Positions 4,383 to 50,118 of a stretch of DNA of 64,000 bases are shown in pieces. How positions within the stretch are numbered: the stretch's first letter is position 1; every line of letters starts with the position of its first letter. The notes beneath the pieces were generated by a model. That model was given only the letters and a program-made list of their open reading frames with translations. It was not told the origin of the DNA and made no database searches. Origin of the DNA: Candidatus Aenigmatarchaeota archaeon (GTDB lineage Archaea; Aenigmatarchaeota; Aenigmatarchaeia; CG10238-14; SpSt-28); the NCBI GenBank assembly GCA_032249395.1, contig JAVVFY010000003.1, positions 1 through 64,000 of the forward strand. The letters are read 5' to 3'. Made by a program: the position numbers and the translations under genes.

Positions 4383-7300
4383 TTACAACTTCTTTTCTAT
4401 TTTTTCTAATTTTTCCTCCAAACTCTTCTTCATTGCTCTATAAGCGGCTTCTGATATTAGCCCTTCTTCTCTGCTTTTCTCCAAAGCTCTCAAAGCTCTC
4501 AAAACATTTTCTTTTTCTGCTAGTATTTCTTCCTTGCTTGGTTTCTTTCTAATTTGTTCTGCAAGCTTTACAGCTGGCAAGAATGTTGGTAATCTTATTT
4601 TTTCTCCCTCTTTCTTCTTCTTTTTCAAAATCAAAACTGTACTAGCTATTGCTAATATTGCTATTGCTATAGCAGCTATTAACCAAAATGGTATTACAAA
4701 AGCTCTAGCTTTTACTGTAAGCTTAGATAGCAAATCTCTTGCCCTCTCCAAAAGTACTTTAGCATTCTCAACATTTTTCATCGCACCTTCATAATTCTCT
4801 TTATTCAAATTGTCTCTAGCTTTCAGAATTTCATCTCTTATTGAGTTTATCATGTCTTTAACAACGCTAACATCCTTTCCTTCTTTCTCAGCAATTTTTG
4901 TATCAATAATTAGCTGAGCTAACTCGTCTTCTAACTTAGAAATCTCTTCTTCCAATAATTCTCTAAGGCTTCTATAGATTATTATGTTGATTTGTTTACT
5001 ATCAGAAATTAGATTAGAAGAGGCAACCAAAGTTGCTGTGTAATTACCAATGCTTACTTCTTTTGGAACGTTGAAAGTTATAGCAAAGACTGCAGTTGCG
5101 TTTGGAGCTAGAGAATAATAATTAGAAGGAGTTATGTTAAACCAATTTACTGGAAAGCCTACTAACATCAAACTAACATTTGACAAATCTAGAGAACCGG
5201 TGTTTCTAACAGTTACCAACTCTGTTTTTATTGAATTTCTTGCTAATGAAATATTAGGATTGAATTTCTCAATCAATATTGAAGCTGTCAAATTAGCTGT
5301 TGGTATTGGCAATGGGGTAGGAACTATAATTTGACCAGTTGGGATTGGAACTTGTTGTATTGGTCTTACAACTTGAGTAACATTTCTTGCAACAACTAAG
5401 AAAGTTGCATTAGCTAAAATTGGTGGCTGAACATAATCATAAGTCATTTTGACGTTTATGAAGTAAGTTCCCAATGGCTGATCACTAAATATGTAAGCCG
5501 TTCTCAAGAACGTTTTGTTAGTTAGAGATGGAGTATAAACTGCCTCAGAAGAATAGAAGTACTTTTTACCATCGACAGAAGAGACCCAATATTCAATGAA
5601 AACATCTTGTGAGACCTCTCCCATATTTATAACCAAAATGTTGAATGGTAATTCTTCCCCTTGAGCAACTTCATATTGCAATGGAATGACTTTAAGGTCG
5701 TATGGTCCTCCCATTGCCACTCTAAATGAAGCTAACTTCATTGTATTGAAGTCTCCTTTTGAAACGTTCAAAACTGCCAAATACATTCCACTTGGTGTAT
5801 TAACAGGCATTGCGTATCTGTAAGAATAAAACCCAATTGATTCTCTATTCATTTGTGCTAGACTAACTGAAAGATAAACATTCCCAGCTGGATCATAAAC
5901 TGTCAAATTCATGGAATCCGGATCTACTGGTCTTCCTTCTCCATTGTAAACCAAAATTCCGAATTTCATGATATTGTTTGGATACCAAACAACAGAAGTT
6001 GAAATATCAGCAAACAAACCAGTAACTGTTATGCTTCTCAACAAAACAGAAAAGTTATAACTAACATTCTTTGTTGTTATGACATTTCCTAGCTCTAAAA
6101 CTGCTTTAGCAATCAAAGTATAGTTGCCAACAATAGAATCTGATGGCAAGTAAAAGCTAGGAGGTGGTAATATTGTTCCATCATCGTTTGTAGTGTAATT
6201 TTGACTCTTAAAAATCAAAACTCCTTGAGGATTGTAAATTTCAAAAGAAACTTTAACATCTTTTATTGGATTTCCTTCAAAATCTCTTGCCAAAAAGTAA
6301 ATTGAACCTGTATCTCCTTGGTAATATTTATCAGAAAACGTTGAGACTATAGCAACAAAAGTTCTCCTTACTTTGAAGAAAGACGTGCTGTTTCCTATAT
6401 TACCTACATTGTCTTCAGCAGTAACAGTTACATTGTAAATTCCAACATCATATGTGCTTCCTCCACTAACAAATGGATAGTCTACATAGAAAATACTAAC
6501 ATTGCCGTCTGAAGTCAAAAATGCCATTTGAGAAGTATCTATACTTCCGTTTGGCTGTTGAACTGATGCATTAACTGATTTGATTCCAGTTCCACTTTTA
6601 TCAGTAACGTTAGCAAAAATCCTTACATTTCGAGTTTGTTCTATTTCATCTTTATCAAAATAAATTTGGATTTCTGGAGGAGAATAAGGCAAAAGAGTAA
6701 CATAGAATGTCTTATTTTTAGGATTAGCATCATCTTCTAAGGCTGAAATTGTAAACGTTGAATTGTAGATTCCTTCTGGAATACCAGTAACATTGTAAAG
6801 TATAGAAACTTTTTTGGTCTTATTTGCTTCAATTACAAAACTTGTTTCATTGACTTTAGTGTAATTGCCATATTCTGGATAAATTGAAAAAGTTATGTTT
6901 GCGTTACCCAAGTTATAAACGTTTAGTTCGCAGGCTATTCCATCAGTAGGAAATTCAGATTTTTTACACTCTATTGGATAAATATCCCAAGTTCTATTTT
7001 CGCTAACATTAATTATTACAAGCAAAGTATCGTAGTTTTTTGAATTGTCCGAAGTCACATTTATTAAACTCTGATAGCTTCCTGCTAGATAGTTGAATGG
7101 AATGCTAACGTTCAAAGCAACGCTATAATTTGTGCCCGCTTCTAAAGATGAAATTAAGCTTGGTGTGAAAATGAAATTAAAGTCGTCACATTTTCCTTCA
7201 ACACAAGAAAATCTTATGTTGTATAATCTATCGTTACCAATAGAAAGAACTGTAAAGTTTCCTATGTAAGAATTTTTACTTGGTTCAACTTTTTTGCTCA

Positions 7301-10235
7301 AATTTGTTTCAAGTACATCTAACAAAGGATTTGATAATACTGCTACTTGAATAGTTGTAGAATTAGAGGAAACGCTATTGTCCAAATTCTTCCAATATAC
7401 ATAAACAAAAACATTGTAAGTGCCAGTTGAGGTTCTCGCTGGTATGCTAACATTAAATGATTTAATGCACGTTTCTCCACTTCTCAAATCTCCACAGCTT
7501 TCTAAATAAGAGTTTGAAGACCAGCCTGATGGCAAACTCAAAGTTATGTTAACGTCTCTCGCGCTTGTATTAAGAATGTTTTTCACAGTCGAGCTAAAAA
7601 CAAATGAATCTCCGGAATATTGAGTAATTGTTGATGTTATAAAGCTATATTTGTCTAGATCGATTGAAACATTCGTTTTTGGGTCTAATACTACCGTTAA
7701 ATTGAATGTATCGTATGAGTAATTTGTAGAAGCATTTATCGTTAGCTTATATGATCCTGCCGGATAGCCTAATGGTATTTGAGATGTTATACTAACATTA
7801 ACCTTTTGTCCTTGTGGTAAACTTGAAATTGAAGAAGGGTTAAATGATATGTTGAAATCTTGACAAATGCTTTCAATGCATGAAATCTGAATATTTTCTA
7901 AAGGATAGTTTCCTTCTGATGAAATTGTGAAGTTTGTTAGAAATGTCAACAAACCATCTTTAGCTTTTGTTGTTATAGATTGTTCTAAGATGTTTAGTAT
8001 AGGATTTGACAAAATTGTTATATTGATTTGAGTTTTGTTTGTAGAAATTGTTCCATCCGGATTTCCCCATCTAATTGTTATATTAACACTAAAGTTTCCT
8101 ATTGTGTTTTGAGGAGCAGTTATAGTGAAATATTTATAGCAAAATTCTCCCAGACCAATATCGCCGCAAGAATTTGGTTCAGATGGATAACTCCATCCGC
8201 TAGGGACTTCAAAGCTTATGTTTGCTGAATATGCAATTCCATAACCAATGTTAGATGCATTTACATAAAACCCAAAAGTTTCACCATAATAATAGGAAAC
8301 GTTAGCTAAAACTACTGAAGATGGAATAGGTTCTATTTTAACTTGAGTTTTTGCAGCCTGAGAAAAGAAAGTATCTTGACCAATACCATAATTTCCGTCT
8401 TTACTTGCATTACAAACTAGGATATAGTTTCCATATGGAGGTGAGGTGAAATTAACCAAGTAAGTACCATTCCCATAATCTGTGAAATTAGTAGTATAAT
8501 AGCTACCATAAGAACAATTTATAAAAGCTCCTGAAATGAATGAATCGTTTCTGTAATTTTTAACATTCACAATAGCAAAATTAGTTAAACCTTCCATCAG
8601 TATTTTGTTTAAAACTGAAGCATTCACGTTAAAAATGTTTGTAACTTCAAAAGAATATTCATGCGAATCCAAGAAAACAAAATCTTTGTCATAAATTGAA
8701 ACATTTATTTTCCAAGTGCCCGTTTGAGCATTATTTGGAATTAAAAAGTAGTTTGTGTATATCTTATCATTTGCTTGCTTATCGCCATGTGTACCGTCAT
8801 CAAAAAGTTGTATTGTTAAATCGTCTGATTTATCCAAAGTTCCAAAGTCTATTGTTGCATTTAGATACTTTGCTAATTGATATGGATCGTTTGTTATATT
8901 TACTTCGAGCAAAACATATTCATTTCTGTTGTAAATTGTTGCATTTGTCTTTATGCTAACGTTAACAAAGATTTTTTCTGGTTTGCTTATACTTATAACT
9001 TCTGGATTTGAAGCCGCTCTTCTAACATTCTCAAAAATAGTTCCTGGCATGATATCTCCATATGCACCAAAGAAGAGTATAGAAGAAAAGTTTATGTACC
9101 CATTTGGTTGTATTTGAGTTTCTTCTAGATGCAAACCTACTCTTCCAAGAGTTTCAGTTTCATTTTTTGCATAGAATGAAGAATATGAATTTAAGTTAAT
9201 TAGACCTCCAGCCCAATTGTAAGAAGTTGTACCAGCTAAAACATATGAATATGGATTTTGTTGATTTCCAGTAACAAAATCCGGATCAATTAAAAAGCTT
9301 CTATTCAAATCTAAAGCAATAGCTCCAGCTGGTGTCGATGACCTATTTATTGATTGACTTTTTAAATTGTAAATTTTTCCCTCGACTTTTATGAAAGAGC
9401 TGTAAGTATCTCCAGCCTTGTTATAAAAGTAATATCTCTTCTCTAAGAAAGCTTCGTTTGTTGGAGAAAGCGAGTTCGAATCTATTTCATAACCTCTTTG
9501 AATCAATGTCACTCTAACTGGTCCTGGAATAATTAATACATTGTTTGAAGTATTTCTAAGATCAAAAGTTAAAGTATTTGTTCCATTGAAGAGTTCTGTG
9601 TATTCAATAGGTTTTTGAGTCTCATCAACATTTACTATGTTGATACCATCTAACTTTCTCACAACCTGATATATACCAGAATAGTTTTGTCTAAATGTGT
9701 CTATGTAAATAGAAAGTTCTGTAGTGTTAACATTTATCATCCTTCCTGAACTATCAACATAATAAGTCAGATTAGTTGCGTATGTCTTGCTTTCTTTTTG
9801 TCCATTTTCAATTGAATCATAGTAAAGATAGAATGTTCTGTTTTGACCTTGCAATATCGTGCCATTTAAAATGAAAACAATTGTACCTACTGCGTTATAA
9901 GATGCATTATAATTATCATCTTTATCAAATTGAACTGGAACTTCGTAAAGAAGTCTTCCATCTGAGCTATACTCAAAAAGTCTTAACGAATTTTCATCAA
10001 ACGTTCCGCTGGGTAACAAATCAGTAAAGTTTATTTTTATTTCCACTGGCCAATTCGTTCTATCTGTAGGAGAATAAATGTCTATTCTAATCCTGTAATG
10101 CCATGTAGTATTAAACCAAGTAGCATTTGTGGGTTCTCCAAAACCAATAAAAAGGCCTGTAATTTGTGGCTTAAAGAAGTATAAAAATGCTATTGCCAAT
10201 ACCAAAAAAATTATTGCCAGGTTAACCTTTTCCAT
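4383..10235 (-). CDS. Large (1,950 aa) membrane-anchored surface glycoprotein with multiple Ig-like domains
   Basis: N-terminal signal; DUF2341-like start (WFNTTWHYRIRIDI); 'LFDDGTHGDKQANDKIYT' Ca-binding-type loop; NEW3/CARDB/MG2-like domains; coiled coil; TM followed by KKKKK; SHOCT-like cytoplasmic tail; many NxS/T sequons. Confidence 0.9.
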   Translation of the reverse strand: MEKVNLAIIFLVLAIAFLYFFKPQITGLFIGFGEPTNATWFNTTWHYRIRIDIYSPTDRTNWPVEIKINFTDLLPSGTFDENSLRLFEYSSDGRLLYEVPVQFDKDDNYNASYNAVGTIVFILNGTILQGQNRTFYLYYDSIENGQKESKTYATNLTYYVDSSGRMINVNTTELSIYIDTFRQNYSGIYQVVRKLDGINIVNVDETQKPIEYTELFNGTNTLTFDLRNTSNNVLIIPGPVRVTLIQRGYEIDSNSLSPTNEAFLEKRYYFYNKAGDTYSSFIKVEGKIYNLKSQSINRSSTPAGAIALDLNRSFLIDPDFVTGNQQNPYSYVLAGTTSYNWAGGLINLNSYSSFYAKNETETLGRVGLHLEETQIQPNGYINFSSILFFGAYGDIMPGTIFENVRRAASNPEVISISKPEKIFVNVSIKTNATIYNRNEYVLLEVNITNDPYQLAKYLNATIDFGTLDKSDDLTIQLFDDGTHGDKQANDKIYTNYFLIPNNAQTGTWKINVSIYDKDFVFLDSHEYSFEVTNIFNVNASVLNKILMEGLTNFAIVNVKNYRNDSFISGAFINCSYGSYYTTNFTDYGNGTYLVNFTSPPYGNYILVCNASKDGNYGIGQDTFFSQAAKTQVKIEPIPSSVVLANVSYYYGETFGFYVNASNIGYGIAYSANISFEVPSGWSYPSEPNSCGDIGLGEFCYKYFTITAPQNTIGNFSVNITIRWGNPDGTISTNKTQINITILSNPILNILEQSITTKAKDGLLTFLTNFTISSEGNYPLENIQISCIESICQDFNISFNPSSISSLPQGQKVNVSITSQIPLGYPAGSYKLTINASTNYSYDTFNLTVVLDPKTNVSIDLDKYSFITSTITQYSGDSFVFSSTVKNILNTSARDVNITLSLPSGWSSNSYLESCGDLRSGETCIKSFNVSIPARTSTGTYNVFVYVYWKNLDNSVSSNSTTIQVAVLSNPLLDVLETNLSKKVEPSKNSYIGNFTVLSIGNDRLYNIRFSCVEGKCDDFNFIFTPSLISSLEAGTNYSVALNVSIPFNYLAGSYQSLINVTSDNSKNYDTLLVIINVSENRTWDIYPIECKKSEFPTDGIACELNVYNLGNANITFSIYPEYGNYTKVNETSFVIEANKTKKVSILYNVTGIPEGIYNSTFTISALEDDANPKNKTFYVTLLPYSPPEIQIYFDKDEIEQTRNVRIFANVTDKSGTGIKSVNASVQQPNGSIDTSQMAFLTSDGNVSIFYVDYPFVSGGSTYDVGIYNVTVTAEDNVGNIGNSTSFFKVRRTFVAIVSTFSDKYYQGDTGSIYFLARDFEGNPIKDVKVSFEIYNPQGVLIFKSQNYTTNDDGTILPPPSFYLPSDSIVGNYTLIAKAVLELGNVITTKNVSYNFSVLLRSITVTGLFADISTSVVWYPNNIMKFGILVYNGEGRPVDPDSMNLTVYDPAGNVYLSVSLAQMNRESIGFYSYRYAMPVNTPSGMYLAVLNVSKGDFNTMKLASFRVAMGGPYDLKVIPLQYEVAQGEELPFNILVINMGEVSQDVFIEYWVSSVDGKKYFYSSEAVYTPSLTNKTFLRTAYIFSDQPLGTYFINVKMTYDYVQPPILANATFLVVARNVTQVVRPIQQVPIPTGQIIVPTPLPIPTANLTASILIEKFNPNISLARNSIKTELVTVRNTGSLDLSNVSLMLVGFPVNWFNITPSNYYSLAPNATAVFAITFNVPKEVSIGNYTATLVASSNLISDSKQINIIIYRSLRELLEEEISKLEDELAQLIIDTKIAEKEGKDVSVVKDMINSIRDEILKARDNLNKENYEGAMKNVENAKVLLERARDLLSKLTVKARAFVIPFWLIAAIAIAILAIASTVLILKKKKKEGEKIRLPTFLPAVKLAEQIRKKPSKEEILAEKENVLRALRALEKSREEGLISEAAYRAMKKSLEEKLEKIEKKL

Positions 10236-11169: not shown

Positions 11170-11211
11170 TGCATATATAATTTTATATACGTGCATATAT
11201 AATTTTATATA
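11170..11211. promoter_or_regulatory. Tandem 20-bp direct repeat, putative operator of the HEPN-MNT operon
   Basis: TGCATATATAATTTTATATA at 11170-11189 and 11192-11211 (22-bp period); each copy contains the near-palindrome TATATAA-TT-TTATATA. Confidence 0.6.
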
Positions 11212-12855: not shown

Positions 12856-13617
12856 TTACCATAAACGAAAGAGTTTTTTTATTTTATCCCAGATGCTTTC
12901 TTTTTCCACATAAAATTCTTCGCTAATTTCTGCTGCCAATTTTTTAAAAGACCTCGAAGCTTTTGTTCTTCCATCAAGCAAAACAACTGGAGTCATTTTA
13001 GAAATAGATTCAATGACTTTTTTGTCAAAAGGAATTTGTCCTATAATTCTTGCTTCAGTCAACTCTTCTATTTGTTCTAATTTCATCTCATGTTCTTTTC
13101 CTTCAACTTTATTCAAGACTAAACCTCTTAATGAAACGTTTAAAGCATGAACGATTTTCTTAGCTTTCAATCCAGAAATAATTGCTGCCATGTCAGGATT
13201 AGATACAAGAAGAATTTGATCACTCGCCTTTATGGTTGAAATTACCTCTCTTCCGATTCCAGCGGCTCCGTCAATTAACACAAAATCATAATTATCTTTA
13301 ACCTTGTCGATTTTTTCTTTAAGCTTAGAAGTATCCGGATGCTCCACCATTGCACTTAAGCTAGCTGGAATAATATGAACTCCACTTGGATGAATGTAAA
13401 TAGCTTGAGTTATATCAATCTTATCTTCTAGAACTTCAGTCAAAGTATTCTCTTGAGAAAGCATTCCAAAATGAATTCCCAAATTTGGTGTTGTTATATT
13501 ACCATCCACAGCCAAAACTCTTTTTCCAAAAAATTTTACTAGCGCTGAAGCCAAATTAGAAGTAACAGTAGTTTTTCCAACCCCTCCTTTTGCGCTTATT
13601 ATCCCAATAACTACCAT
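12856..13617 (-). CDS. minD: MinD/ParA-family ATPase
   Basis: Deviant Walker A 'SAKGGVGKTT'; 'DFVLIDGAAG'; 'LVLNK'; C-terminal amphipathic helix 'IWDKIKKLFRLW'. Confidence 0.9.
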   Translation of the reverse strand: MVVIGIISAKGGVGKTTVTSNLASALVKFFGKRVLAVDGNITTPNLGIHFGMLSQENTLTEVLEDKIDITQAIYIHPSGVHIIPASLSAMVEHPDTSKLKEKIDKVKDNYDFVLIDGAAGIGREVISTIKASDQILLVSNPDMAAIISGLKAKKIVHALNVSLRGLVLNKVEGKEHEMKLEQIEELTEARIIGQIPFDKKVIESISKMTPVVLLDGRTKASRSFKKLAAEISEEFYVEKESIWDKIKKLFRLW

Positions 13618-15228
13618 CTAAATTACCTCTTTCATTTTTTTCAAAACTTTCAAAACATCTTGTTTATCTTTAACTTTAATTGGTTCAACAAATTTTGGTT
13701 CGACAGATTCTTTTTTGACTTCTTTATTTTCAATTTCTTCATTTTGTATATCTTTACTATCTTTCAAATTTCCAGAGGCTTTAGAATCTTCAACTTTTGT
13801 TTCTTTTAGATTAATCGTCTCTTCTTTTGTTTCTATCTTCTCATTTTTCGAGTTATTATCCTGAGGTTTGAGTTTTTCAATAACTTCCTCCTTTTTTATA
13901 TCTTTTCCTCTTTTTTCTTCAGTTTTTGCTTCATCTCTATTCTTTTCATTTTCAACTTCCTCTTTTCTTTCAACAAGAGGAATAGCTTCTATTCCTCCGC
14001 TCTCTATAAACTTCTCTATTCTTTTCCACTCTTCTATTAACTGATCTTCAATTTTTCTAAGTTTTTCCAAAGCCTTAGATTTAGCCAAGTTATAATCTCC
14101 TAAGCTTATTTTTCCTAGTTGAAGTTCGGTTTCTAATGATTTTATTAACAACAAAACATCATCCCTCTCCTCTCTAAGTCTCTTTATAGTTTCTGGTATC
14201 TTCGCTTCAGTTATCGGCAGGACTTTATTAATTTCATCTATTTGAGATCTAATTGACATTATATCTGTTCTAAAAGACTCTATGTCTTTTAAAGTAGCAA
14301 CATTTTCTAACCTTGTGTTAATAGTTTCAACATTTCTGGAAAGTTCTCTTACGCTTTCTTCTAAAGAGTCCAACCTTGCTTTAAAAATTGGAAATTCTTC
14401 TAGATTTTTACTCATTTCAACAAATGCCTTCTCAACTTGTGTGGCCAATCGCTCAATATATCTCACAACTTCCTTAATTTCTTTAACCTTAGCTGATATG
14501 TCTTTGGAAATTTTTGTAAGATTTTCTAAACTTCCTGCACTCCTCAAAAATTCATTTATCTTAGACACTTTTTCTCCAACATCCTCAAGCTTTTTGTCAG
14601 TCTTTTCTTTAAATACCTCAAAACTCTCCAAATTTTTCTCAATATCTCTAATTCTCTTTTCAATTTTTTCAGGTCTCAATTCCTCTATATCGCTAGTCAA
14701 CTTTTCAACCTTCATTTCAAGTTCTTTTAGAGCTCCATCTGTCTGAAAAACCATAGAACGAACTTCTCCTAAAGCTTCCGCTAAACTTCTTATTTGCTCA
14801 TTCAAAGTCTTATCTGTATCTCTTAGAGACTCTATAAATGCTTTAATCTTTTCTAGCTCAACGCCAATCTTGCTTTCGGCAGCTTCTTCTTTTGTCTCCT
14901 CAACCTTAACCTCTTCAACTTCTTTAGGAGGATTCATAGGATCAATAAAAACTGGACCTTCTTCTGCAGAACCTTCCTGCTTATATGGATTCTCTTCAAC
15001 TTCTTTCTTTTTATCCTCTTTTTTCTTTTCCTCTTTTATCCCAAGTTTTTTGTTGATTTCTGCCAACTTTTTCTCGTACTTTTCTTTAGTTTCTTTGTAA
15101 ACAGCTTCTGTAATATTGGCTTTTTGAAATTCTTCTTCCAGTTGGGAAATTAATATAAGAATGTCTTCTCTTTCTTTTTCCAATTGTTTTCTCTCTTCTT
15201 CCTTCAACACTTTTTTAAATAAAGGCAC
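13618..15228 (-). CDS. Cytoplasmic long coiled-coil protein with two SHOCT-like motifs and a charged disordered tail
   Basis: Heptad-rich E/K/L sequence. GTG start shares a base with the stop of the giant gene; its stop abuts the minD ATG. Confidence 0.8.
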   Translation of the reverse strand: MPLFKKVLKEEERKQLEKEREDILILISQLEEEFQKANITEAVYKETKEKYEKKLAEINKKLGIKEEKKKEDKKKEVEENPYKQEGSAEEGPVFIDPMNPPKEVEEVKVEETKEEAAESKIGVELEKIKAFIESLRDTDKTLNEQIRSLAEALGEVRSMVFQTDGALKELEMKVEKLTSDIEELRPEKIEKRIRDIEKNLESFEVFKEKTDKKLEDVGEKVSKINEFLRSAGSLENLTKISKDISAKVKEIKEVVRYIERLATQVEKAFVEMSKNLEEFPIFKARLDSLEESVRELSRNVETINTRLENVATLKDIESFRTDIMSIRSQIDEINKVLPITEAKIPETIKRLREERDDVLLLIKSLETELQLGKISLGDYNLAKSKALEKLRKIEDQLIEEWKRIEKFIESGGIEAIPLVERKEEVENEKNRDEAKTEEKRGKDIKKEEVIEKLKPQDNNSKNEKIETKEETINLKETKVEDSKASGNLKDSKDIQNEEIENKEVKKESVEPKFVEPIKVKDKQDVLKVLKKMKEVI

Positions 15229-18200
15229 TATTTACCACCAAACTTGCTAAGTCTTTTTTCCAGAGATTCTAAGTATGTCTCTACCATCTTGAAAGCTCCT
15301 GTCTTTAGTTTGTCCTTAGCTATGTTTAGTTCTATCTCCATGTCGTATGTATCTACTCCTTTACTCTTCAATTCTGCTATCTTTGCTTCAAACTCTTCTA
15401 TTTTCTTATTTAGACTTACATATTGATTAATTTCTTCATCAGTAAGACCAAATGGTGAATGCAATATTGGTCTAAAGCTTATGAACCATGGCTTACCGTG
15501 GTTGTATTCTGGATTCTGGAACAAACCAGTACCTATTGTTAGTTTTGTAATCTTGCTCGCATATTCTTGACCATACTTAGACTTAACTCTATTTATGTCT
15601 CCTTCATACCTTGTTCTCAACTGGATTTCGTTAGCTATGTTAGCTCTAACTGCTCCCTTGAAATCTAGCAAAACTTGAGATACCATGAAAATACCAATTC
15701 CCCACTTTCTGAATTCTCTTACTCCTCTTTCTAGAGCAGTGTATCCACCTTTCCCACCGTACTTTGGTAATAATCTATGAACTTCATCGTAAACTAACAA
15801 TAATTTCATTTCTTTTGTTTCTGGCGGCCTCATATCGAATATTGCTTGAATGCTTCTTCTAACAAAGGCATCCAACTGCTCTGGCTTCAATCTGTTCATA
15901 ACAAATACAGTAATTTCTCCCGGAATCATGTATTTCTTTATGTTTATTTCCATGTTCGGATCTTCAACAACGACTATGTTTGTTCTAAAGCTTCTAGCAT
16001 CAGTTGGCTTCAATCCAAACTTTGGATACAAATCTAACATTTGTTTTAATCTGTTTGGTTTGATGAATCCTGTCCATTGACCAGTTGGATCGAAAACTAT
16101 AACTGGTATTTTCCTCTTTAACAATTCTTCAGCTACAACCATTGCTGATATTGTTTTACCAGAACCTGTACCACCGGCAGCAATTGTGTGCATTGTTAAC
16201 TGAGATAAGTCTAAGTATGCTTTAACATCAGTTTCTGCAATCTTACCAACTTCTATAGAGTTTGGTCCTGGTTGTGGCAATTCTTTGAAGTCGATTGGTG
16301 CAACATATCTTCTTTTAGCAAGCTTTGCCATTCTGTAAGCTGCATACCATCTCAGTGCAACATATCCAATTGGCAATGCAATCATTAGTATAAAGTAAGT
16401 TACCCAATTGCTGAAAACTGCTTTTAGCATTAAAACTGGAGCTGGCAATTCGCTGACTTCAAAGCTGTCAGCAGCCATTGCATATTTCTTTCCATACCAA
16501 TAGCTCGCATTAACAAATAGTATGTAAGAGTCTTGAGGTGTGTTTTCTGGGATTGTAATTTTTCTAACGTAAGTTAATGTATTAACAACAGCTAAAGTTT
16601 CTTGAGTTTGGGTAATTATTTTGTATGGCTCGTTTAATGTCCTAACGGTGTATGTAACAGTTATATCTTCAACACTTGGAGTCTGACCCATGTTTATCAA
16701 AGTTACCTCAAACATCAAATCTTTACCGGGAGCGACAGCTTTAGTCAAAACTTTTGTTTTAACGTCTAGCAATGGTTCAGCTATTGGATTTACTTTTATC
16801 GTTAAAGGAACTTTATGAGTTATGTTACCTGCTCTCAATGAAATTTCTCCTATGTAAATTCCAGGAGCTATTGACTTTGAAGCAAATACTCTAAATGTGG
16901 CAGTAGAAATTGATTGAGCGGGCACTCTAACTAATGGAGTTTGAACCGTTACTATTGATGATGCTGGTCCTTCAATTGTAATTGAAACATCAAAGTCTTG
17001 AGTTAAGTGATTCGTAACATCTATTGAGAAGAGTTTCTCTTCTTCTGGAGCAACAGTCAAATCAATAACTGTAGCTTTAAATTCTACTGGCGCTCTCGTG
17101 ACGTTAGGTAAAGTAATGTTTGGTACTGATATGTTTGGTAGAGAGATGTTTATAGGCAGACCAAATCCACCTATTCCACCTCCTACACCTGCGCCAGCTC
17201 CGGCACCACCTCCAAATCCTCCACCACCTGCTCCAGCTCCTGTTCCTACACCTCCTGCTCCACCAGCACCTGCTCCAGCTCCGGGTATTGATGGACAATC
17301 TAATGGACATATCGCACTATTCTCTCCATAAGTAGACTCACATTCGCCATTTCCACATATGAACTCAGCCAATATATAAACTCCTCTCAGATCTGAAACT
17401 TTTGCCCTAACAGTAAATGTTGTCAAATTGATAGAATTATCAGAATTATCATAGTTCAAATTGGTTATTCTCCTCCAATTTGAATTAATTGATGTGCTAA
17501 CGATTGGCGTCCAGTTTCCTTGATATTTGTAAATTCCTAAATTGCTTGCACTGTATATTGGTAATCCACAAGATTGACCAACACAGTCATCAAACCTAAA
17601 TTCAATAGTAGCATTTGTGTAATTCAAAATCGTATCAACATACAAAGTCTTTAATGCGCTTGTCGTTACTCTTTGTTTTGGTATATTTCCTACTATTATT
17701 GGGTTGAAGAGGCTTGTAGATATTGAGACATTTTCTAGATAGATTGATGGGTTAAAGCTACCATTTTCTAACCTCAACAACAAATTATAAGTTTTAACGT
17801 CTACAGTCTTGTTGTAATAGCCAGTTTCATTGTTTGTAAAGTTGAATCTTACACTTCCATCTAAATCGTACAAAATGAATCTTGCGCTAATTGGTTCTTT
17901 TGCTAATGACTCATAGTTCAGCATGTAACCAGCAAACCAGGCTGTTGGATAAACTACAAATGTCTTGTTCACAAAATTACAATTGTTGCTAATATCACAA
18001 GCCGAAATTGAAAGTATGAATGTTCCTGTTAGGTTCGTGCTTATGTAAGTTGTGTTGTATGAATAAACATCATAAATCCTTCCAACGAAAGTTAAATTCA
18101 GGATTTCAACGTATTGATCTGGTCTTATTATAGTAGCGTTAACACTCTTCAATCTTCCAGCTTCAGTTACATTTATCAAAATTGGTATTATCTCGTAAAT

Positions 18201-21200
18201 TGGAGTTCTAGATGGCATGGAAATGTTTATTATTGGAGCTATTGTATCGTTGTAAATTATTGAATCTTTCTCTTCATCATACTTAGTTATCGGAATGTCT
18301 TTGTTTGTGCTCACACTTATTCCAAGAGAGTATGCTCTACCTAAAGCTAAGTTTGGAGCGGAAATCCATATTGACCATATTCCGCTTGACGCATTGAATT
18401 GAGAGATAAAGCTTGGAGATATAACAAAAGTATCATTGAATAGTGTTACATTGAACGAAGCTGATGGCTCTGGCAATCCATTGTATTTAACATCAACTTT
18501 TGCCTCTATTAATGTAGCTGGGTTAACATTCAACATTGGATTTTCATATGTTGGATAAGTTATATTAACGTGGAATGAGTGAACAAATACTGAAATATTA
18601 GTTGATGTTTCTGTTATGGTTGAATTTCCTCTTAACCAATCAACAATTCTTGCTCTCAATACACCTTCATAATATCTGTTTGAAGGCAAGCTTGGAATGT
18701 TGTAAAATATTGTTAAGTTCTTGCTTCCAGCATATGGCACAACAATGAATGAATCGCTAACATTCAATATTTGAGTTATATTTCCTTCTAAACTTATGTT
18801 CAATGGAACCTCATAGTTTCCTTTGTTAACAAAATTGATTGTATCAAATGTTCCGTTTGTTTCATCAACCAAAATCTTAATTATTGATGTTGGTGATTGC
18901 TCCCAAGAGATGTTCATTGGCACCCAAACATTTATTGGCAATATTGAAGATTTGTTTGTACCCCAAGAAATTCTTATACTTCCGTTGTAGTTTCCCGTCA
19001 AATAGTTGTTTGGAACTCCCAATGAAATGTTTATGGTTCTTATTTCTCCTACACTCATACTATCAATTTGAGATGGAGCTAACGTTAGATTGAAGTCTGT
19101 GCATGGAATACCGGAATAGCATGTTATGTTTATGTTTGTTGCGTTAACATTTCCAATCGACCAAATATCAAAGCTTGAAGTGAAGGAATCTCCAGCAACT
19201 ATAGCATACTCTAATTTACTTATCCTTGGTACAACTAGTGGATTTGGAGTAACATTAACTTCAACTATTCTTGTCGAACTGTTTTTACTAGAATCTAGAT
19301 TTGTCCAATTTGCTAATAGAGCTATGTAATATGTTCCAGGTTGAGTGTATGGAGATATGGAAATGTTTGAAGTTGCAGAAATGTTAGAGCTTTTCAGCAA
19401 CAAACTAAAGAAGTAATTCTTTGGAGCTACTGTTACATTATCGCTTGAACTTGTATTAACGCTTATATTAAATGCTCTTGAACCTCCAACATTCTCTACA
19501 ATTAGTTTTGTTGATATTACTTGTGGGGAAACAATAGTAACGTTATCTGCAATTAGTGGCTCATTTTCAAATCTAACATTAAGTTGAGTAGTTGTTGATC
19601 CTATAACTTGATAGTAGTCAGTGCACCCAACCAATCCATACGGTCTGCTTGGCAATACAGTATCATTCGCACAAATTCTAACTTTATGAATTCCAGATTG
19701 CCTGCTAACTAATGTTGTGTAGTAATAGCTAGAGATGTTGCTCATTGTTTGATTAACTTTCGTTCCATTTGGAAACTCAACTTCTATCCATGCTTTATCA
19801 ACACCAACATTATCAGTTATGTTTGCTGAGATGCTAACATTTTCATATCCAACTTCGAAATTCATTGGAACAATTGAAACATTTTCTATTGTTGGAGGAA
19901 CATCAGTAATGTTGAATATTCCGTATATTAGTCTTTCTGATGGGTCTGCTGGGAAGCCAGAAGCATTCCTTAAGTAAATTCCATAATCGTAAATTCCTTC
20001 AAAAACATCGACAGGAATTGAATAATTAACAACTATAGTTCTAGTACTTCCTTTAGCTAATTCAAATGGCAAAGTAGCTAGAGGTTCGTTTAAATAAGCT
20101 TTGAAGAATGTGCTTGCGTTTCCTGAAGGTGAGAATGTTAGAACAAGTCTAACATTTCCTATGTTTGTTACGTTTATAAATGTTAAGTTTCCTTTGGTTC
20201 CTGGTGGCAATATTCTAGTTCCAAGTGATGTCGGTGAAACAATCCAAGTATAGTTAGCTGGCACTGTTATGTTTAATAATGCGTCTGAATATCCAGCGTT
20301 AGTTGAATTTGCTCTTAATGTTGCAAGGTATATTCCTGGATCTTGTCCCCTTGGAACTTGTATACTAACGCTTGCTGTTCTAACTTCACCAGCTTTCAAA
20401 AGACCGAATTCTGTTGGATATACTGTTAACCTACATTCTGGACATCTTGAATACAAGTAATCTGTCAAACTTATTATTTTTGCTTCATAAACATCATCGT
20501 TACCTTCAGAAACAACTTTAACATCTCCTATGTAAGTTGTAGCATCATGCGGAGCAGAAACTTCGATGTAGTTTGGTTCTATGGATATTACTGGGTTTGA
20601 GGTAACAGTTATAGTTATTCTTGCTGTTGTCGAGTTAATGCTTAAGTCTGGATTTCTCCAAGTTGCAATCAAGTTGTATGTATATATTCCTGGAGATGTT
20701 GCATTTGGAACTATTATGGTGTAGTTCCAATAGCATGTTTCACCTGGCTTCAAAGTGCCACATTGTTTAATACTTTCATTGTATTTCAAGCTGCCTATTG
20801 GAGATTCTGAATGGGTTAGATTAACGCTATAAGCTGTAGCCGGACCAAGATTTGTAAAGTTGGCTATAACTGTAAAGTTGAATCCTTTCTTTTGAGTAAT
20901 TCCAGTTGCCAATACATCGTTAATGTTTGTTTTCGCATCTCCATAAACTTTACCGAACACAACTATTTCTGCAGCTAGAGTGCTATTAACATTAGATTCG
21001 GGTGGCATGTCAATGGCATATATGTATAAGCTATGATTTCCGTCCATTCTTGGCAAGTATGTTGTTGAATAATTAACAAAAATGTAATCTCCAATTTTAA
21101 CCTTTGGTGAAACATTATACATTGGTACTATTTCAAAGCTTCCATTTGGTAAGCTGACATTTAACCAAACAGAGTTTACATCATAATTGTCTGAAATAGT

Positions 21201-24200
21201 AGCGAATACTTGTGTTGAATTTAAGTTAGCCTCTAATCCATAAACTGGAGTTACGTTTATGTTGAAAATTACTGGTGGATAAATATCCTTAACCCAGAAC
21301 ATTGCTCCGCTTGTTTTTCTGTAAGCTGAATAATACTTATCGTTATCATCTGTTATGTTGCACAAGAATGTGTAATTTCCTTTTTCATATGGCTTGAATT
21401 GATAGCTTGCATATCCGCTTGAATTAGTTTTTAGAGTATCTAAGTAGATGAAATCGACATTTGGTTCAATCTTGTAGTATAAGCTAACATTGTAATCGGC
21501 TATTCCTCCAGCGTAAGTATCTTTAACCATGCATGTCACGTTGAATTCTTCTGGATATGGCAAAACTGTATCGTTTAGAGGAGATATCCAAATGACGTCT
21601 GCAAGACTGTTTATGTATATTGTAACATTAGCTTTACCATCATCATAATAGCTCTTTTTAGCAACCGCCATTAGTGAATGTCTACCAGTAGATTGTTGTG
21701 CCACAAAGGACTGAGGTATAATTGTTGAGATTCCTTCTACCAATTTGCTTGTTTCATTCCACCATTCTACAGTTAAGCCAGTTTCATTTAGATAATCTAA
21801 TGTTTCTCCATTTTCGCTAATAACATTAACTTCGACAGGAATTGATTGAGCTTTAGAGAAGTATGAGTTGTTTCCTGGTAAAATGATTGTTGCATATAGA
21901 ATTCCTTTTACTTGTATGCTTGTATTTACAGTTTCAGATGGCTCGTTAACATCTCTCGTTGCGTTTATGTATATTGTTACCAAGCTTGGAGTAAAGTTAT
22001 CTGGGAAGTCGAGGTTAATTAAAGAACAATAACCAGTTGAATTCGTTAAGCAACTACCAATATAATTGTTAAACATGTAGAATGAAACGTTTGCTCCACT
22101 TGCGTCTCCGATTTGCGCATCTCTAACGTGAACTGTTATGTTAGCTTTGTTTGGAACGAACGAATCGTTTCTGTAAATGAATGGTGGTGCAATAATTTCA
22201 TCTATTATCAAAGGTCTTTTTAGAGTTATTATTATGCTTGATTGAGGGATAGCCGGAGTGTAAAAGAGTGTTGAATTTGTTTCTATTCTACAACTAACAT
22301 TATAGTTGCCTGCTGGCTCTCCAAATGTATTCCAACCTATTTGTGCATAGCCGTCTGAATCACTCAAGCTACTTCCAATCAAAACATCATTCTTGAAGAA
22401 CTTCACTGAATAGTTGGAGATTGGTTGAGAAGTGTTGAAATCTAAAACTCTACAAACTAGATTTATCAATGATCCTGACTCTACTGTAGTTCCGTTTGAT
22501 GGTGAGACAAAGTTTACTCTAGACCATCCGTAAATATATACTGGAGTTGAATTGAAGTTTGAGTCAAAGTTGGTTTCTGAAACATTAACATATATTCTTT
22601 CGAAACCTAACTTGTATGATGTTGGAGTTAACCATGTTGTATTTTGACCGCTAGCTAACAAACTCCAAGTTGAGTTGTACCATCTCGCTGTTGCATTTGG
22701 TCTTAAATTCAAGCACTCATCATAAACGCTAGCATTAAATACATTAACAACTCCTCTCTGCAATATTGAATTAGCAGCTGGATTTATTATAGATACATTT
22801 AATTGACCAATAACAGTTAGAGTTCTGTTAGTTGAGTTTACTTGTTTATAGCAAGCATCTCCACTTTGGGCGAACCAGTATTGAATTCCTTCTTTTGATG
22901 AACAATCTGGATTATAATAAACTGTACAATTTCCGTTCGATGAAGTGCAGTTAAGGAAGTAATCATAGTTTCTACCATCTCTTGTAATCCAAATTGTTAA
23001 GTTAGCATCACTTGGATATATTCCTCTATCAGAATCGTAAACGATTGCTCTCAAATATGCTAAGTTATCTCCAATTCTTCTTACTGTGGTTGAACTATCT
23101 GATGCTAAATTAATCGTTACATCATCTTTCTCAAAAGTTATATTCAAGCTGGCACTTGTATCATTAAATCCATTAACATCTACTGTAGTAACTTTAAAGA
23201 AGACTGTTGAATTTGTAAGATAATCGCTACAGTCAAATCTCTTTGAAAAGCTAACAGGATAATCGCTATAACTTGGAGTAACAACTTTAGAATCAACATA
23301 AATCCAAGTTACATTATCATAACTCTTCCATAGTGTCACATTGTTTGGACTTGAATCTGTATCTGTTATTCTAACGTTGAAATTGTACGATTCTCCCCAA
23401 CCACCATAGTAATGATCTATTGTAAATGAAGTTATTGTTGGCTTAGATGCTACGAAGAATGCGTTTGGTTTTGTTATTGTAGTGTATGACGGATATTCAG
23501 AGTAATAGATTTTTCTCGCCATCATCTTTATAGAATACCAACCAAATGGCTTTCCGCTTGTATCAAAAGTACAATTGTATGTTCCATTGCTCATATCGTA
23601 AACAGGAGTACAGCTGAATTGATTTGTACCCCAAACTCCGTACAATAGTACATCAGCTCCGTTTACATATTCGCATTCGTCATACACTGAAACGTAGAAT
23701 GGTGCTGTGGTTCCTCTTAAGAACGCGTCTCCATCCGGATAATCTACTCTCAAGTTAATTTGTGATTTTATCGTTATTGTAAAGTTGGAGGAAGATGCCG
23801 GCTTGTAATAATCATCACTAACAATAGCTGCTTTCCAATATTGAATTCCTGTTTTGTAGAGTGGATTGCAACCTGGATCAAATTCAAAAGTAGCATAACC
23901 TGTACCGTTTGAATATACAATAGTTCCTGAATCAAAGATGCTTCCATTCAAAGTTACGAAGAAGGTTACGTTAGCGTCGTTAGCTGGTTCTTCTCTATCT
24001 AAATCATAAACATAAACAACAAGCTTTGCTATATCAGTTCCGTTTCTCCAAACTGAAGTTCCATTACCAGCTACAAGAGAAATGTTTACGTCGTCTTTTT
24101 CAACGAAGAAGCTGTGTATGCTTGTGTTTCCAACATAATTTCTTATATCTTCGGCTTCAAAGTAATAGTACCATTCTCCTTGTTTTGTTTGAAGGACTGA

Positions 24201-27200
24201 TGGATTCTTGAATGTTAAAGTTATCGTTTTGTTTATTGCTCCATTTAAATCTGGATTGTCTATATAACTACTTGAATTTGCAAGTATCCAAGTTGATTCA
24301 GTAGCTCTCTTAATCCAGAGTTTTAGTGAAAGTGGGTCTAGATCTTCATCAGTAACGTTAACTTTAAACGTCCAAGTCTCACCCCATCCACCAGTATCTG
24401 TTCCGCTCTTTGACAAAACTTGCTCTCCAGTTAATATAGGCATTGTTTTGACGTATATTATGTTTTCTGTCAATAGGTAACCATTGTTGTAGAATTGTTT
24501 TTGGGCAGAAACACTTATGTTGTAATATCTAGCTCTAATTAGAGATGTGTTTATTGAACATAAGTACTCACCATTTCCAAGAGAAACTACTGGAGAACAA
24601 TTGAATATTGTTCCACTTTCATGAATTAGATTTATTGAAACGTTTGCATCACTAACGTCTAATCCAACATCATTAGTTACTTTAACTCTTATTGTTATGT
24701 TGTCGTATGGTTTTAGGTATTCTGTATATACTGAAGGATAGAGTAACTGAATGTTCAAATCTCCAAGAATTGTCAAATATTGTTCTGTCGAATTATTATC
24801 TTGATAGCAAGCATCGTCATAAATTCCTCCTTTCCATTTTTGAACTCCAACTGAGTAATCTGCAGATGGATTAAAGTAAACTAGCAAAAAGCCATTGTCA
24901 TCTGTTACATTTGATGTTCCATAATCGTAATTATTTCCGTCTAAAGTAACGAATATTCTTCCACTAAAGCCAGAAGATATGTATGAGTTTTTGATTGTAT
25001 CTTTTATTCTAACTCCCAATAAGGTTGTTTGATCGCCGCTTCTATTAACAAAAGAGTTGTTACCAATGTAATACTCGCTTATTGTTGGATCTTTAGTTAT
25101 AGTTGGTCCTATAGTTTCTGATGTATTGAAAACGTTTTCTCTAGTTCCATCATCAATTTCAAATTTGAAGTAAGTCGTGCTTGATATATCTGAGCATGTA
25201 AAATCAGTAACGTTAACCACGCATTTTCCTCTTCCACCTGTCAAATTATACGATCCTTTATAGACCCATCCACCAGTAGTTTTAACATAAAGTCTACAAG
25301 TAACATTGTCTTGCCGATGATCATAAACATCAACACTGTAACTGAAGATCGAACCCCAACCACCTATAGTTGGAGTGACGCTTAAGTTTTCAGCCTGTGG
25401 AGGCGTGTTGTTAAGATAAAACCAATTTGCAAATATTGTTGAGTTTGGATAGTAGTTAGGTTTGCTTGCATTTATTCTAAAGCTGTATAATCCTCCAATG
25501 TGGAAAGATGTATCCCAACTCGAATTATAATAACCATTTCCTAAATCGAAAACTGGTGTTATTGTTTCTGCCTTGTTATCTGGTGAAATAGCTTCATGTG
25601 TCACAATAGCTCCGGATATCAATCCTTCATCTGAACAATCAGAATAAACAAATGAAGTAACATTTGCTGCATCACCAACAATAATTTGAGAGCCTTGAGT
25701 TGGAGAAGCAATACCAACTTTTAGTTGACCTGTAACATTAACAGTAAAGCCATATTCTGGCACTGTATCTTTGTAACAGACATCATTCTCAATACCAGCT
25801 TTCCAGTTTTGCATTCCAACTCCAATGCTACAGTTCGGATCGAAGTAGAATGTTAAAATACTACTAGAATCTGTTTGATTGACATAATATCTTATGTAGC
25901 TAGAAGTGTCTCCACTTGAGCCTAAGCTTCTGGTAGTTACATACAAGCTACCATTTCTTCCTGCACCAACCAAAACATTTCTGTCTATATCTCTAACCAA
26001 AACTTTAATTGTAACAAAATTGCTACCTTCTCTTCTTACTTGCTCGCCAGCACCAGCTACATATTCTATGCTAACATCATCTTTCTTTATGTCTATTGTG
26101 CTGTTCTTTTGATCCGAATAGCCCCAAACATCAGTCGCAACAAACTTGTAGGCTCTAACTCCTATATCATCACAAGAGAAAGTATCATAAAATGTTACTA
26201 ATTGAGGAGTCTCTGCTTTTATTATAGTGGAATTCCTCAATACCCATCCGCTTGATAGATTTACATATAGAGAAACATTAACATCATCATTATCCTGATC
26301 ATATATCCAAGCTTCAAATTTCCAAATCTCTCCCCAAGAACCATCTCCACTTATTGAGTAGCCAGTAATTGATGGAAAGCCTTCTGGAGTAATTATTGGT
26401 TCTGTTGCTAGGTAAAATGCATTTTCTTGGAAGTCTGTACTTGAGTTATAATACATCTTTGAAACTTCTACACTAATGTTATGCCAGCCTGTTGTCCAAG
26501 TTGTTGTAACATATGCAGGAATTGTACATGAATAAGTACCATTTCCATAGTCCACAACATCGCTACAAATGTAGTTTCCGTAGTTTGGATCGTAAATGTA
26601 GAAAGTTAAAGCAGCCCCACTAACATAGCCACAATCGTCCTTAACCTCAGCATAAATCTTTATGTCATCTTTACCTCTCACTGGAGCATTCCAAGGATAG
26701 TTGTTGATTGGTGCTGTTATGTTTACTTTCAATGGTTCTGTAACTATATCAAATCTTACTACTGAAGAATTCTTTATTTCCCAAGCGTATTGTGTTGTTG
26801 TATTAAATGTTCCTGCAATCCAATATTGTGGTCCAACTGAATAACTACAATCTAAAGTAACGCTTCTTGAAACATAACCTCCGCTCGCTATGTATAATGT
26901 ACCAGAATCTATGAATGTTGAGCCGTCTTTAGTGAAGTATATCTTTGCTGTTCTTCCTCCTGGAAGAGGAGCACCTGTATCAGAATCTATCATTTGGGCT
27001 CTATACTCAATTGGAGAACCTTTCATCGCACTTCTGTTGATAACAACATCTACTGGATTTATAGGAATGATAGTAACATTGTCTGGATTTAAAGTCAAGT
27101 ATAGCCAGCCAGTATCATAAATATCTTCTGGTAGACCCGCGGGAGGATTATCTGTAACATTAAACTTGAATTTAACTGTTCTGTTTCTATTGAAATCATC

Positions 27201-49532: not shown

Positions 49533-50118
49533 AAGCTACTCTCACCTTTATCTCACTTTCTCCAAGTTTCGTTGATAAATCGCTTTTAACAGAAAACTCT
49601 AACTCGCAATAAGAGTTTACTTCGATTACATTGCAAACTTTTTCTAAGGCGTCTGTCGAAAATCCTTTCGGCAAATCGACAGATACTCGAACGTTTGTGG
49701 CATTAGCACTTCCTTCATTGCTAACAACAACTCTTAACAAGAAACTCTCTCCTCTTGTTATTCTGCTTTTATCGGTGCTTAATCTCAAAGAGATTTTTGG
49801 TTTTGCGATAATTTCTGTTGTTTGAGAAATTTGCGTAGCAGATGTCGAAACGTTTTCACTTGCTCCATTTTCTTCTGTGCTATTAGATTCATTCATTTGA
49901 GTAAGTTCAGAAGAAGTTGTATTCGACGAGTCGACAGATTGTTGTGAAGTTGAGTTTTCAGAAACCAAATTTGTCGAAGCTGACTGTTCACTCGAATTTT
50001 CATTTGTTGTCAAATTTAGTGAGCTGTTCATAGCTTCTTGAGCAATCGACAAGTAGAAAAAGAAAGAAAAGGCTAAGAAAATTGCCAATAAAGCTAGAAA
50101 TTGGGCTTTTCCCTTCAT
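49525..50118 (-). CDS. Exported protein: signal, S/T/N/Q-rich linker, single DUF11/CARDB-like Ig domain
   Basis: MKGKAQ followed by a hydrophobic stretch; low-complexity linker; 'VVVSNEGSANATNVRVSVDLPKG'; 8-bp overlap with the start of the giant gene. Confidence 0.8.
   Translation of the reverse strand: MKGKAQFLALLAIFLAFSFFFYLSIAQEAMNSSLNLTTNENSSEQSASTNLVSENSTSQQSVDSSNTTSSELTQMNESNSTEENGASENVSTSATQISQTTEIIAKPKISLRLSTDKSRITRGESFLLRVVVSNEGSANATNVRVSVDLPKGFSTDALEKVCNVIEVNSYCELEFSVKSDLSTKLGESEIKVRVAYE

Follow-up and report, generated by a model that had tools for sequence, protein, structure and literature searches.

DPANN archaea depend on direct contact with a host cell, and it is still debatable how material gets from one cell into the other. 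The question is raised here by 64,000 nucleotides (nt) of DNA from a Candidatus Aenigmatarchaeota archaeon (GenBank assembly GCA_032249395.1, contig JAVVFY010000003.1, positions 1 to 64,000, forward strand; hereafter the window), in which one gene encodes a predicted surface protein of 11,434 amino acids (aa). An earlier note on this DNA had claimed that this giant protein ends in an intact cytoplasmic ATPase of the HerA/FtsK superfamily, and had proposed that it forms a single-gene conduit. Is this fusion real, to which ATPases does the cytoplasmic tail belong, and what might it do beneath so large an ectodomain? The fusion of ectodomain and ATPase is, with near certainty, real and conserved. 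Judging by sequence and layout, the giant protein belongs, as a very large example from Aenigmatarchaeota, to a design published under the names SPEARE and 'giant membrane-anchored extracellular protein' (Hamm et al., 2019, PMC6642349; Reva et al., 2023, PMC10266531). The design is already in print, and knowledge of its function is unchanged by the present member.

The giant open reading frame (ORF) occupies positions 15228..49532 of the minus strand, to which all window coordinates below refer unless stated otherwise. In the ORF listing and the translation it runs from an ATG to one terminal stop, 34.3 kb without an internal stop in a window free of N. The ATPase lies in the same frame as the surface protein, as the earlier note had it, and the peptides quoted there (IEVGKIAETDVKAYLDL, TIAAGGTGSGKT, IVFDPTG, LLLVYDEVHRL and REFRKWGIGIFMVSQ) are all present in the translation. 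The protein is rich in serine, asparagine and threonine (27% together), with 486 N-x-S/T sequons and 174 cysteines. A 19-residue hydropathy scan picks out just three hydrophobic stretches, at aa 11-47, 52-79 and 11031-11066. The last of these contains a transmembrane (TM) helix (aa 11040-11066; 16335..16415), which is followed by RMAKLAKRR, in agreement with the positive-inside rule, and forms part of a continuous helix at residues 2-39 of the structural model described below. Read from hydropathy, the layout comprises about 10,950 extracellular residues (16416..49295) and a cytoplasmic tail made of the last 368. The claim of 'one TM' held for the single helix ahead of the ATPase and left out one or two hydrophobic segments at the N-terminus (aa 11-47 and 52-79; 49296..49502), which may represent a cleaved signal peptide or a second membrane anchor.

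The source genome is a metagenome-type assembly of 25 contigs (752,806 bp, 89.5% complete), a circumstance that gives some footing to the suspicion that a misassembly joined the ATPase to the surface protein, or that two genes are read through by chance. The comparison with relatives leaves this artefact a negligible probability. Three whole orthologues (10,147, 11,607 and 11,262 aa), drawn from the same genus, the same family and another family of the order, are collinear with the giant protein over its whole length. Their identity to it, taken per 400-aa interval, is mostly 29-66%, rising to 63/82/66% at aa 1601-2000 and to 87/80/67% in the tail, the best-conserved part of all. Among 40 relatives, the tail (64-99% identity) ends frames of 10,147, 13,242, 11,607, 9,015, 8,909, 9,184 and 11,262 aa, and a tail paralogue (about 50% identity, same 40 relatives) ends frames of 2,200-3,300 aa. 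Within a sample of the phylum the tail was found at E<=1e-40 in 61 of 121 genomes (in 40 of the 85 that are of high quality) and in 37 of 80 genera, and the longest frame ending in it reaches 14,526 aa. Independent genomes from further genera and families have the same collinear ectodomain-to-tail gene, and this, together with the 34.3 kb that lack a stop and 113 database proteins of 3,300-10,500 aa that end in the tail, argues against an accident of assembly. On this sequence comparison, misassembly is excluded for practical purposes; the earlier note had named absence of the fusion from all homologues as a ground for abandoning its claim, and the fusion is present in them.

The spread of the tail extends well beyond the phylum. 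Searched against 1.84 billion representative proteins, it gave 1,401 matches at E<=1e-3 and 372 (representative clusters) at E<=1e-30; besides the 113 very large proteins just mentioned, 625 matches have 684-2,000 aa. Named matches at 78-99% identity are labelled Candidatus Aenigmatarchaeota, a DPANN phylum, and the taxon labels of the relatives as a whole include Aenigm-, Woese-, Pace-, Micr-, Parv-, Nano-, Alti- and Nanohaloarchaea, with some Heimdall-, Thor- and Hadarchaeales. One protein of 7,378 aa labelled 'Nanohaloarchaea archaeon' carries a tail 60% identical to that of the giant protein (E 4.6e-154). The architecture is a family trait: among 250 family proteins, 225 have the Walker A pattern and 224 of these enough upstream sequence, and 218 of the 224 show a hydrophobic stretch 25-120 aa ahead of this motif. 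Many other family members carry laminin-G domains (PF13385 or PF02210). At their C-termini, many Woesearchaeota-type relatives of about 1,300 aa (P0234, P0211, P0236, P0067) have 250-330 residues beyond the ATPase with the twice-repeated motif DEL+..h..MDD.TF..HVG.DYN.FA.WI+....ELAEKI, unrelated to the Aenigmatarchaeota coiled-coil protein described below, and in others the ATPase is extended by a long E/K-rich coiled coil (429 aa in P0111).

To which ATPases does this tail belong? Its Walker A motif GGTGSGKT (aa 11120-11127; 16152-16175), its Walker B motif LLLVYDEVH (aa 11244-11252; 15777-15803) and the stretch REFRKWG (aa 11272-11278; 15699-15719), which continues through S-Q to aa 11286, make up the catalytic set. 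The earlier note had called these motifs intact. Aligned with one another, 42 tails (43-85% identity) show no departure from Walker A (G..GxGK), Walker B (DE, then H-R) or R-E-F-R-K-W-G-x-G...S-Q, which are thus invariant in all 42. The last block (aa 11272-11286) aligns with REGRKFGVG..VSQ of solved HerA (4d2i, 9x1l) and presumably carries the trans-acting arginine of the HerA hexamer. From this conservation, the tail is very probably an active ATPase.

Family scores for the tail, obtained with a 490-aa Pfam query, point to the HerA clade. The DUF87/HerA central domain (PF01935) scores 51.3 bits against a cut-off of 23.2 and HerA_C 39.9 against 22. T4SS-DNA_transf (21.0 bits, cut-off 20.1) and TrwB_AAD_bind (21.0, cut-off 20.5) are marginal and span only query residues 148-214 and 168-210, about 40-65 residues of the P-loop region; FtsK_SpoIIIE stays below its cut-off (18.8 against 24), as do DEAD and a weak ResIII match. 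NCBIfam equivalogs for HerA, CedB, CedD and TraD give 17-43 bits against cut-offs of 366-970, with 38.5 bits for the HerA model NF040937 (cut-off 800) and 26.6 for NF040819 (cut-off 970), and on these scores the tail is an orthologue of no named enzyme. When the alignment profile was run against the PDB at E<=1e-3, eight sequences matched, all eight of HerA type, as were the PDB matches of the tail sequence by itself.

The predicted fold gives the same placement. A single-sequence AlphaFold2 model was unusable (predicted local distance difference test, pLDDT, 47) and the model was therefore built from the 42-sequence alignment, reaching a pLDDT of 92.5 and a predicted TM-score (pTM) of 0.87. 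It consists of the long helix 2-39 (the TM helix and its extension), a linker of about 20 residues, a RecA-like core at 58-330 (aa 11092-11364; 15441..16259) and, at 331-398, the terminal helical bundle announced in the earlier note, with three helices (331-356, 362-376 and 380-398; aa 11365-11432; 15237..15440; pLDDT about 95). Foldseek placed HerA first (4d2i, 2.7e-14); among the matches listed, all through rank 35 are HerA or HerA complexes, with TcpA and FtsK lower. VIA-align against 48,161 chains likewise put Sulfolobus HerA on top (4d2i_B, Z 25.8, 257 residues, rmsd 3.0), ahead of DndH-C (24.1), VirB4 (23.3), Deinococcus HerA (22.2), TrwB (18.4), FtsK (17.2) and EccC (16.9). Pfam found no HAS barrel in the tail, where the TM helix and the short linker stand before the core. 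Taken together, profile and model identify the tail as a HerA-clade ATPase without HAS barrel, in which the TM helix is predicted to occupy the position of the barrel. The superfamily assignment of the earlier note was thus right, with HerA as the nearest relative. The source genome holds one copy of this tail and, elsewhere, a gene for a canonical HerA of 491 aa as well as a DUF87 gene with an intein. In the latter, an intein with a LAGLIDADG endonuclease interrupts the ATPase (G000:C2; L055:1033-3564 and L055:2-997, minus strand), and the neighbouring AAA/RuvB-like gene likewise carries an intein fragment.

The extracellular part is rich in potential glycosylation sites and in cysteine. Searched with Pfam in three chunks covering the ectodomain, it gave beta-sandwich families only (MG2, Filamin, Big_7/Big and NPCBM_assoc/NEW3), and neither a laminin-G family nor a peptidase or serine protease family at E<=0.5. 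A Gly/Ala-rich low-complexity linker, seen in the translation and the hydropathy plot (aa 10751-10795; 17148..17282), lies about 245 aa ahead of the TM helix and precedes two membrane-proximal NEW3-like domains. If one beta-sandwich of about 100 residues spans about 4 nm, the ectodomain could extend over some hundreds of nm, roughly as much as the cell measures. The interval aa 1601-2000 (43533-44732) is conserved like the ATPase tail, as seen in the three orthologues above, and has weak Ig-like Pfam matches and no sequence match in the PDB. It may be a functional, perhaps binding, head of the fibre. Ahead of the ectodomain, the second N-terminal hydrophobic segment and the N-I-T-G-R-F that follows it are kept in the orthologues. 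In the giant protein and its orthologues, the hydrophobic helix is preceded by K-G-Q, I-G-Q, T-S-Q or T-G-Q (window 49296-49400; L048:10383-10562; L050:14771-14950; L051:817-1086). These flanking motifs are reminiscent of archaeal class III (pilin-type) signal peptides, an idea that was dropped for want of support from Pfam.

The 'single-gene' part of the proposed conduit did not survive inspection of the neighbourhood. The giant gene stands in a row of four minus-strand genes arranged head to tail, with junctions of -8, -1 and 0 nt: a gene for a 197-aa secreted NEW3-domain protein (49525..50118; Pfam NPCBM_assoc, 8.4e-08), the giant gene, a gene for a soluble 536-aa coiled-coil protein, hereafter the partner (13618..15228), and a gene for a 253-aa archaeal MinD-type ATPase (12856..13617; TIGR01969 minD_arch, 211.4 bits, cut-off 201.75). 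The stop of the first gene overlaps the giant gene's ATG by 8 nt (tATGAGTAAg), and a small upstream gene with the identical overlap occurs in two of the three orthologues examined (G006 and G022). The giant gene's TAG and the partner's GTG start have 1 nt in common (TAGTG), and the ATG of MinD comes directly after the partner's TAG (TAGATG). A second large surface protein, of 1,950 aa, is encoded about 2.6 kb beyond MinD (4383..10235), with a signal, a NEW3/MG2/Ig ectodomain, a TM helix near aa 1853-1873 and a cytoplasmic tail of about 80 aa.

Conservation singles out the partner among these neighbours. Its gene lies 3' of the ATPase gene in all eight orthologous loci (26-57% identity), and weaker relatives adjoin three of four paralogue loci; MinD follows the partner in two of the eight, and a homologue of the second surface protein is found near the giant gene in seven. 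A partner profile built from 23 sequences detects a same-strand downstream ORF at 10 of 17 named loci from other phyla, that is, at 10 of the 13 testable ones, as the available DNA ends with the ATPase gene at three loci and about 250 nt beyond it at a fourth. The aligned partners have in common the core E..hKA.hE......NE+h..hSE.IGEhR...V.PE, in short SE.IGE.R ... V.PE, and this core is more than coiled-coil composition. The partner proteins have no hydrophobic segment and no informative Pfam relative, and their profile retrieves only generic or designed coiled coils from the PDB. A fused ATPase-partner form was not found, the partner hidden Markov model matching none of the 250 ATPase-family proteins, and a complex prediction of tail (residues 40-400 of A1) and partner (1-430 of A2) scored 0.00, a value that speaks neither for nor against an interaction. 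At a locus of an uncultured archaeon (L036:1-6786), tandem ATPase-tail genes (ends at 3789 and 5445) are followed by one partner gene (5522-6786).

The partner and the second surface protein resemble each other in one respect. The last 50 aa of the second surface protein are 38-47% identical to the N-terminus of two partner proteins (L017 and L018). At the end of its cytoplasmic tail, the second surface protein has a helical motif some 45 residues long, L..LE..Y.+G.IS...Y+..K.+...KL..I..KL (4386-4580), which also opens the partner (15049-15228) and recurs at partner aa 355-400 or so (14014-14175). As the sequences look, it may be a shared docking element. An assignment of this motif to SHOCT was rejected for want of a Pfam match, and the only score obtained was GvpG at 30.1 bits (cut-off 30.6), with the C-terminus of the second surface protein.

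Other features of the window bear less on the giant gene. On the plus strand, flanked by MinD and the second surface protein, genes for a HEPN protein and a minimal nucleotidyltransferase (MNT) overlap by 4 nt (11211-12319); MNT-HEPN modules are described as unusually conserved in DPANN archaea and set in a housekeeping context (PMC6393860). The rest of the window has housekeeping genes (tRNA endonuclease, FEN1, thymidylate kinase and tRNA synthetase), and Rfam found three tRNAs only. About 1.1 kb upstream of tRNA-Ile (50676-51786) have no ORF of at least 80 aa and no Rfam match at gathering score. A scan of the window for bacterial-type promoters and terminators stayed below shuffle expectation, the models being bacterial and uninformative for an archaeon.

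What might such an assembly do? The favoured reading is that a HerA-clade ring ATPase sits beneath giant ectodomains and, together with the partner and MinD, moves a polymer. The tail would assemble into a ring, probably a hexamer, like its solved relatives HerA, VirB4, TrwB and FtsK, and by analogy with these a ring is the likely form. The TM helices, about 20 residues away, would fix the N-terminal face of this ring, the HAS-barrel side in HerA, to the membrane, with several giant ectodomains projecting from a single motor base where the host is contacted. Function would require ATP hydrolysis, because the ATPase is strictly conserved. The partner would work with the ring as scaffold, stator or adaptor, and MinD would position the assembly in this lineage. 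The likeliest task would be translocation at the symbiont membrane, the ring threading a polymer that is either host DNA or unfolded protein. For the reading as a whole, mechanism included, we consider the chances evenly divided; that the ring translocates a polymer, rather than purely scaffolding or regulating, falls by analogy with relatives slightly short of an even chance. The conduit of about six stalks above a pump, or the mechanotransduction, of the earlier note would be conjecture built on such a ring.

Several observations weigh against a translocating ring. One TM helix per subunit yields a bundle of six helices at most, or at least 12 only if the N-terminal segments stay in the membrane; this is no obvious channel for DNA or protein. 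Among the window ORFs there is no polytopic channel protein, no NurA nuclease and no protein with the VirB4 N-domain; this last, the sole such family searched for beyond the window, was not found genome-wide either (89.5% complete). The tail lacks the HAS barrel of HerA, and HerA-type rings of defence systems are, by the titles of their structure entries, scaffolds or regulators and not pumps, a precedent for roles other than translocation. The tail is missing from 60 of the 121 sampled genomes of the phylum and is therefore not essential. Oligomeric state, substrate and direction would all be carried over from relatives. Finally, peptides of the ectodomain and of the TM/cytoplasmic part of a nanohaloarchaeal SPEARE protein appeared in different size fractions in proteomics (PMC6642349), and by analogy the two parts of the giant protein may be separated after translation.

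The absence of a channel-forming partner from the window and the one TM helix per subunit also speak for a different role, in which a HerA-type ring clusters and anchors the fibres, and binding and hydrolysis of ATP do no more than regulate their assembly, disassembly or adhesion state, a form of inside-out signalling. The partner would then be a cytoplasmic base plate, MinD would provide positioning, and nothing would pass the ring. The conserved soluble partner, the adjacent MinD and the helical motif common to the partner and to the cytoplasmic tail of the second surface protein fit such a switch, and the HerA rings of Sir2-HerA and DUF4297-HerA are platforms for partner proteins. However, a catalytic set that is strictly invariant down to the R-x-x-R-K block is as compatible with a working motor as with a switch, and the closest folds are all translocases or secretion ATPases. 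We regard a pure scaffold or switch as rather unlikely, though next in rank after the favoured reading.

The substrate of the ATPase could also be the giant protein or its neighbours, with the ATPase extracting or inserting TM or signal-anchor helices or driving fibre assembly. VirB4 dislocates pilin from the membrane, and a biogenesis motor of this kind would resemble it. The closeness of the fold to VirB4, the conserved hydrophobic helix at the N-terminus with K-G-Q or G-Q in front of it, and the presence of a co-operonic small secreted protein and a nearby second surface protein, both with NEW3 domains, can be cited for such a motor. Yet the ATPase is translated last and therefore cannot power the export of its own ectodomain in cis, and no class III signal family was found at the N-terminus by Pfam. 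A biogenesis motor seems to us very unlikely.

The favoured reading of a polymer-moving ring can be widened beyond the giant protein. An ectodomain of any size, a TM helix and a HerA-clade ATPase, accompanied by a coiled-coil protein with SE.IGE.R...V.PE, might constitute an ancient, self-contained archaeal envelope machine, which would bundle giant fibres, drive DNA or protein exchange between DPANN archaea and their hosts and be placed by MinD at the contact site. Such a machine would be distinct from the type IV secretion system (T4SS), Ced and the type VII secretion system, would be conserved from Aenigmatarchaeota to Woese-, Micr- and Altiarchaeota, and would amount, in topology, to a ring ATPase resembling a coupling protein, with an extracellular loop enlarged to at least 10,000 residues. 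This wider proposal is doubtful and is offered as a speculation. Whatever its fate, a fibre covalently tied to a cytoplasmic, predicted ring ATPase is a prime candidate for the interface between DPANN archaea and their hosts, because the giant gene takes up 4.6% of the 0.75-Mb genome and stays collinear across families.

How does the giant protein compare with known systems? Archaeal HerA (Sulfolobus, 4d2i; DUF87, PF01935) is the best match of the tail in both sequence and fold, with Walker A, Walker B and the REGRKFG..VSQ block in common. In contrast to canonical HerA, the tail has a TM helix in place of the HAS barrel and scores 27-39 bits with NCBIfam HerA models whose cut-offs are 800-970. 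Unlike in the canonical HerA-NurA pair, no NurA family was detected among the 24 window ORFs at E<=1e-5, and the neighbours are instead a coiled-coil protein and MinD. CedB is a membrane-anchored HerA/VirB4-like ATPase of the crenarchaeal Ced system, which imports DNA and is used at cell-cell contacts. The tail was tried as a CedB orthologue and rejected, with 18.7 bits for NF041017 against a cut-off of 700; CedD (NF053655) gave 42.6 bits against 600, both matches covering the P-loop region only, and no CedA-like polytopic protein is encoded in the window.

TrwB/VirD4 and VirB4 are membrane-tethered ring ATPases of the same superfamily, with the fold scores given above and the same topology of N-terminal hydrophobic segment, outside loop, TM helix and ATPase, except that the 'loop' of the giant protein has about 10,950 aa. 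This likeness underlies the proposal, made for the nanohaloarchaeal giant proteins, that an Ig-like ectodomain binds the host while a VirB4/TraG-like ATPase secretes effectors into it in the manner of a T4SS (PMC10266531). In the present case the proposal can draw on VIA-align, with the VirB4 score already cited and Z 16-18 for TrwB, TcpA and DotL-type coupling proteins, and on the marginal Pfam matches to T4SS-DNA_transf and TrwB_AAD_bind. These matches are nevertheless confined to the surroundings of the P-loop, and the PDB profile search yields HerA-type chains only and no T4SS ATPase. The CagE/TrbE/VirB N-terminal domain of VirB4 (PF03135) was found neither in the tail nor in the genome (89.5% complete), no other T4SS family is represented among the window ORFs, and the downstream genes encode the partner and MinD instead of a second VirB4/TraG ATPase. 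Effector export of the T4SS kind is, in our judgement, quite improbable for this protein.

The closest counterparts are the SPEARE proteins of Nanohaloarchaeota. These were described as proteins of up to 8,553 aa, mostly extracytoplasmic, with a TM helix toward the C-terminus and a cytoplasmic portion that is their most conserved part and was then taken for a type III restriction enzyme; their defining features included a serine protease domain and one or more laminin-G domains, one such protein was shown to be expressed, and similar cytoplasmic sequences were pointed out for Altiarchaeales and for Woese-, Aenigm- and Micrarchaeota (Hamm et al., 2019, PMC6642349). In a later reinterpretation the cytoplasmic part became a VirB4/TraG-like ATPase with a coiled coil behind it, the assignments of protease and nuclease domains were rejected, a type IV-like secretion role was proposed, and a second VirB4/TraG-type ATPase gene was placed immediately downstream (Reva et al., 2023, PMC10266531). 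Beyond these two papers we found no further description of the ATPase-tailed giant family; it is not mentioned in the available parts of PMC6393860, PMC5898192 and PMC4158269, nor was it found in PMC8407114, on Aenigmarchaeota. The coiled-coil proteins of PMC11291902, which need not be related to the partner, sit in type IV pilus loci.

The giant protein has the SPEARE layout of a giant extracytoplasmic part, a C-terminal TM helix, a best-conserved cytoplasmic P-loop domain and a terminal helical or coiled-coil piece. Its tail finds matches in the lineages listed by Hamm et al. and in others, with 60% identity to the 7,378-aa 'Nanohaloarchaea archaeon' protein in a comparison that did not include the named type proteins NAR1_1133 and SVXNc_0300, and the weak ResIII match of the tail explains the original 'restriction enzyme' label. 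It differs from the SPEARE proteins in that its coiled coil is a separate downstream gene and that the next gene encodes MinD, where nanohaloarchaea have the second VirB4/TraG-type ATPase. To the nanohaloarchaeal examples, it adds a larger member from another phylum, of 11,434 aa as compared with 5,998-9,409 aa in the papers, and one without the name-giving SPEARE domains, as no laminin-G or serine-protease family appears in its ectodomain at the threshold used. Furthermore, its ATPase belongs, by profile and predicted fold, to the HerA clade rather than to VirB4/TraG proper, and the coiled-coil partner, conserved across phyla, offers experimenters a second handle on this design.

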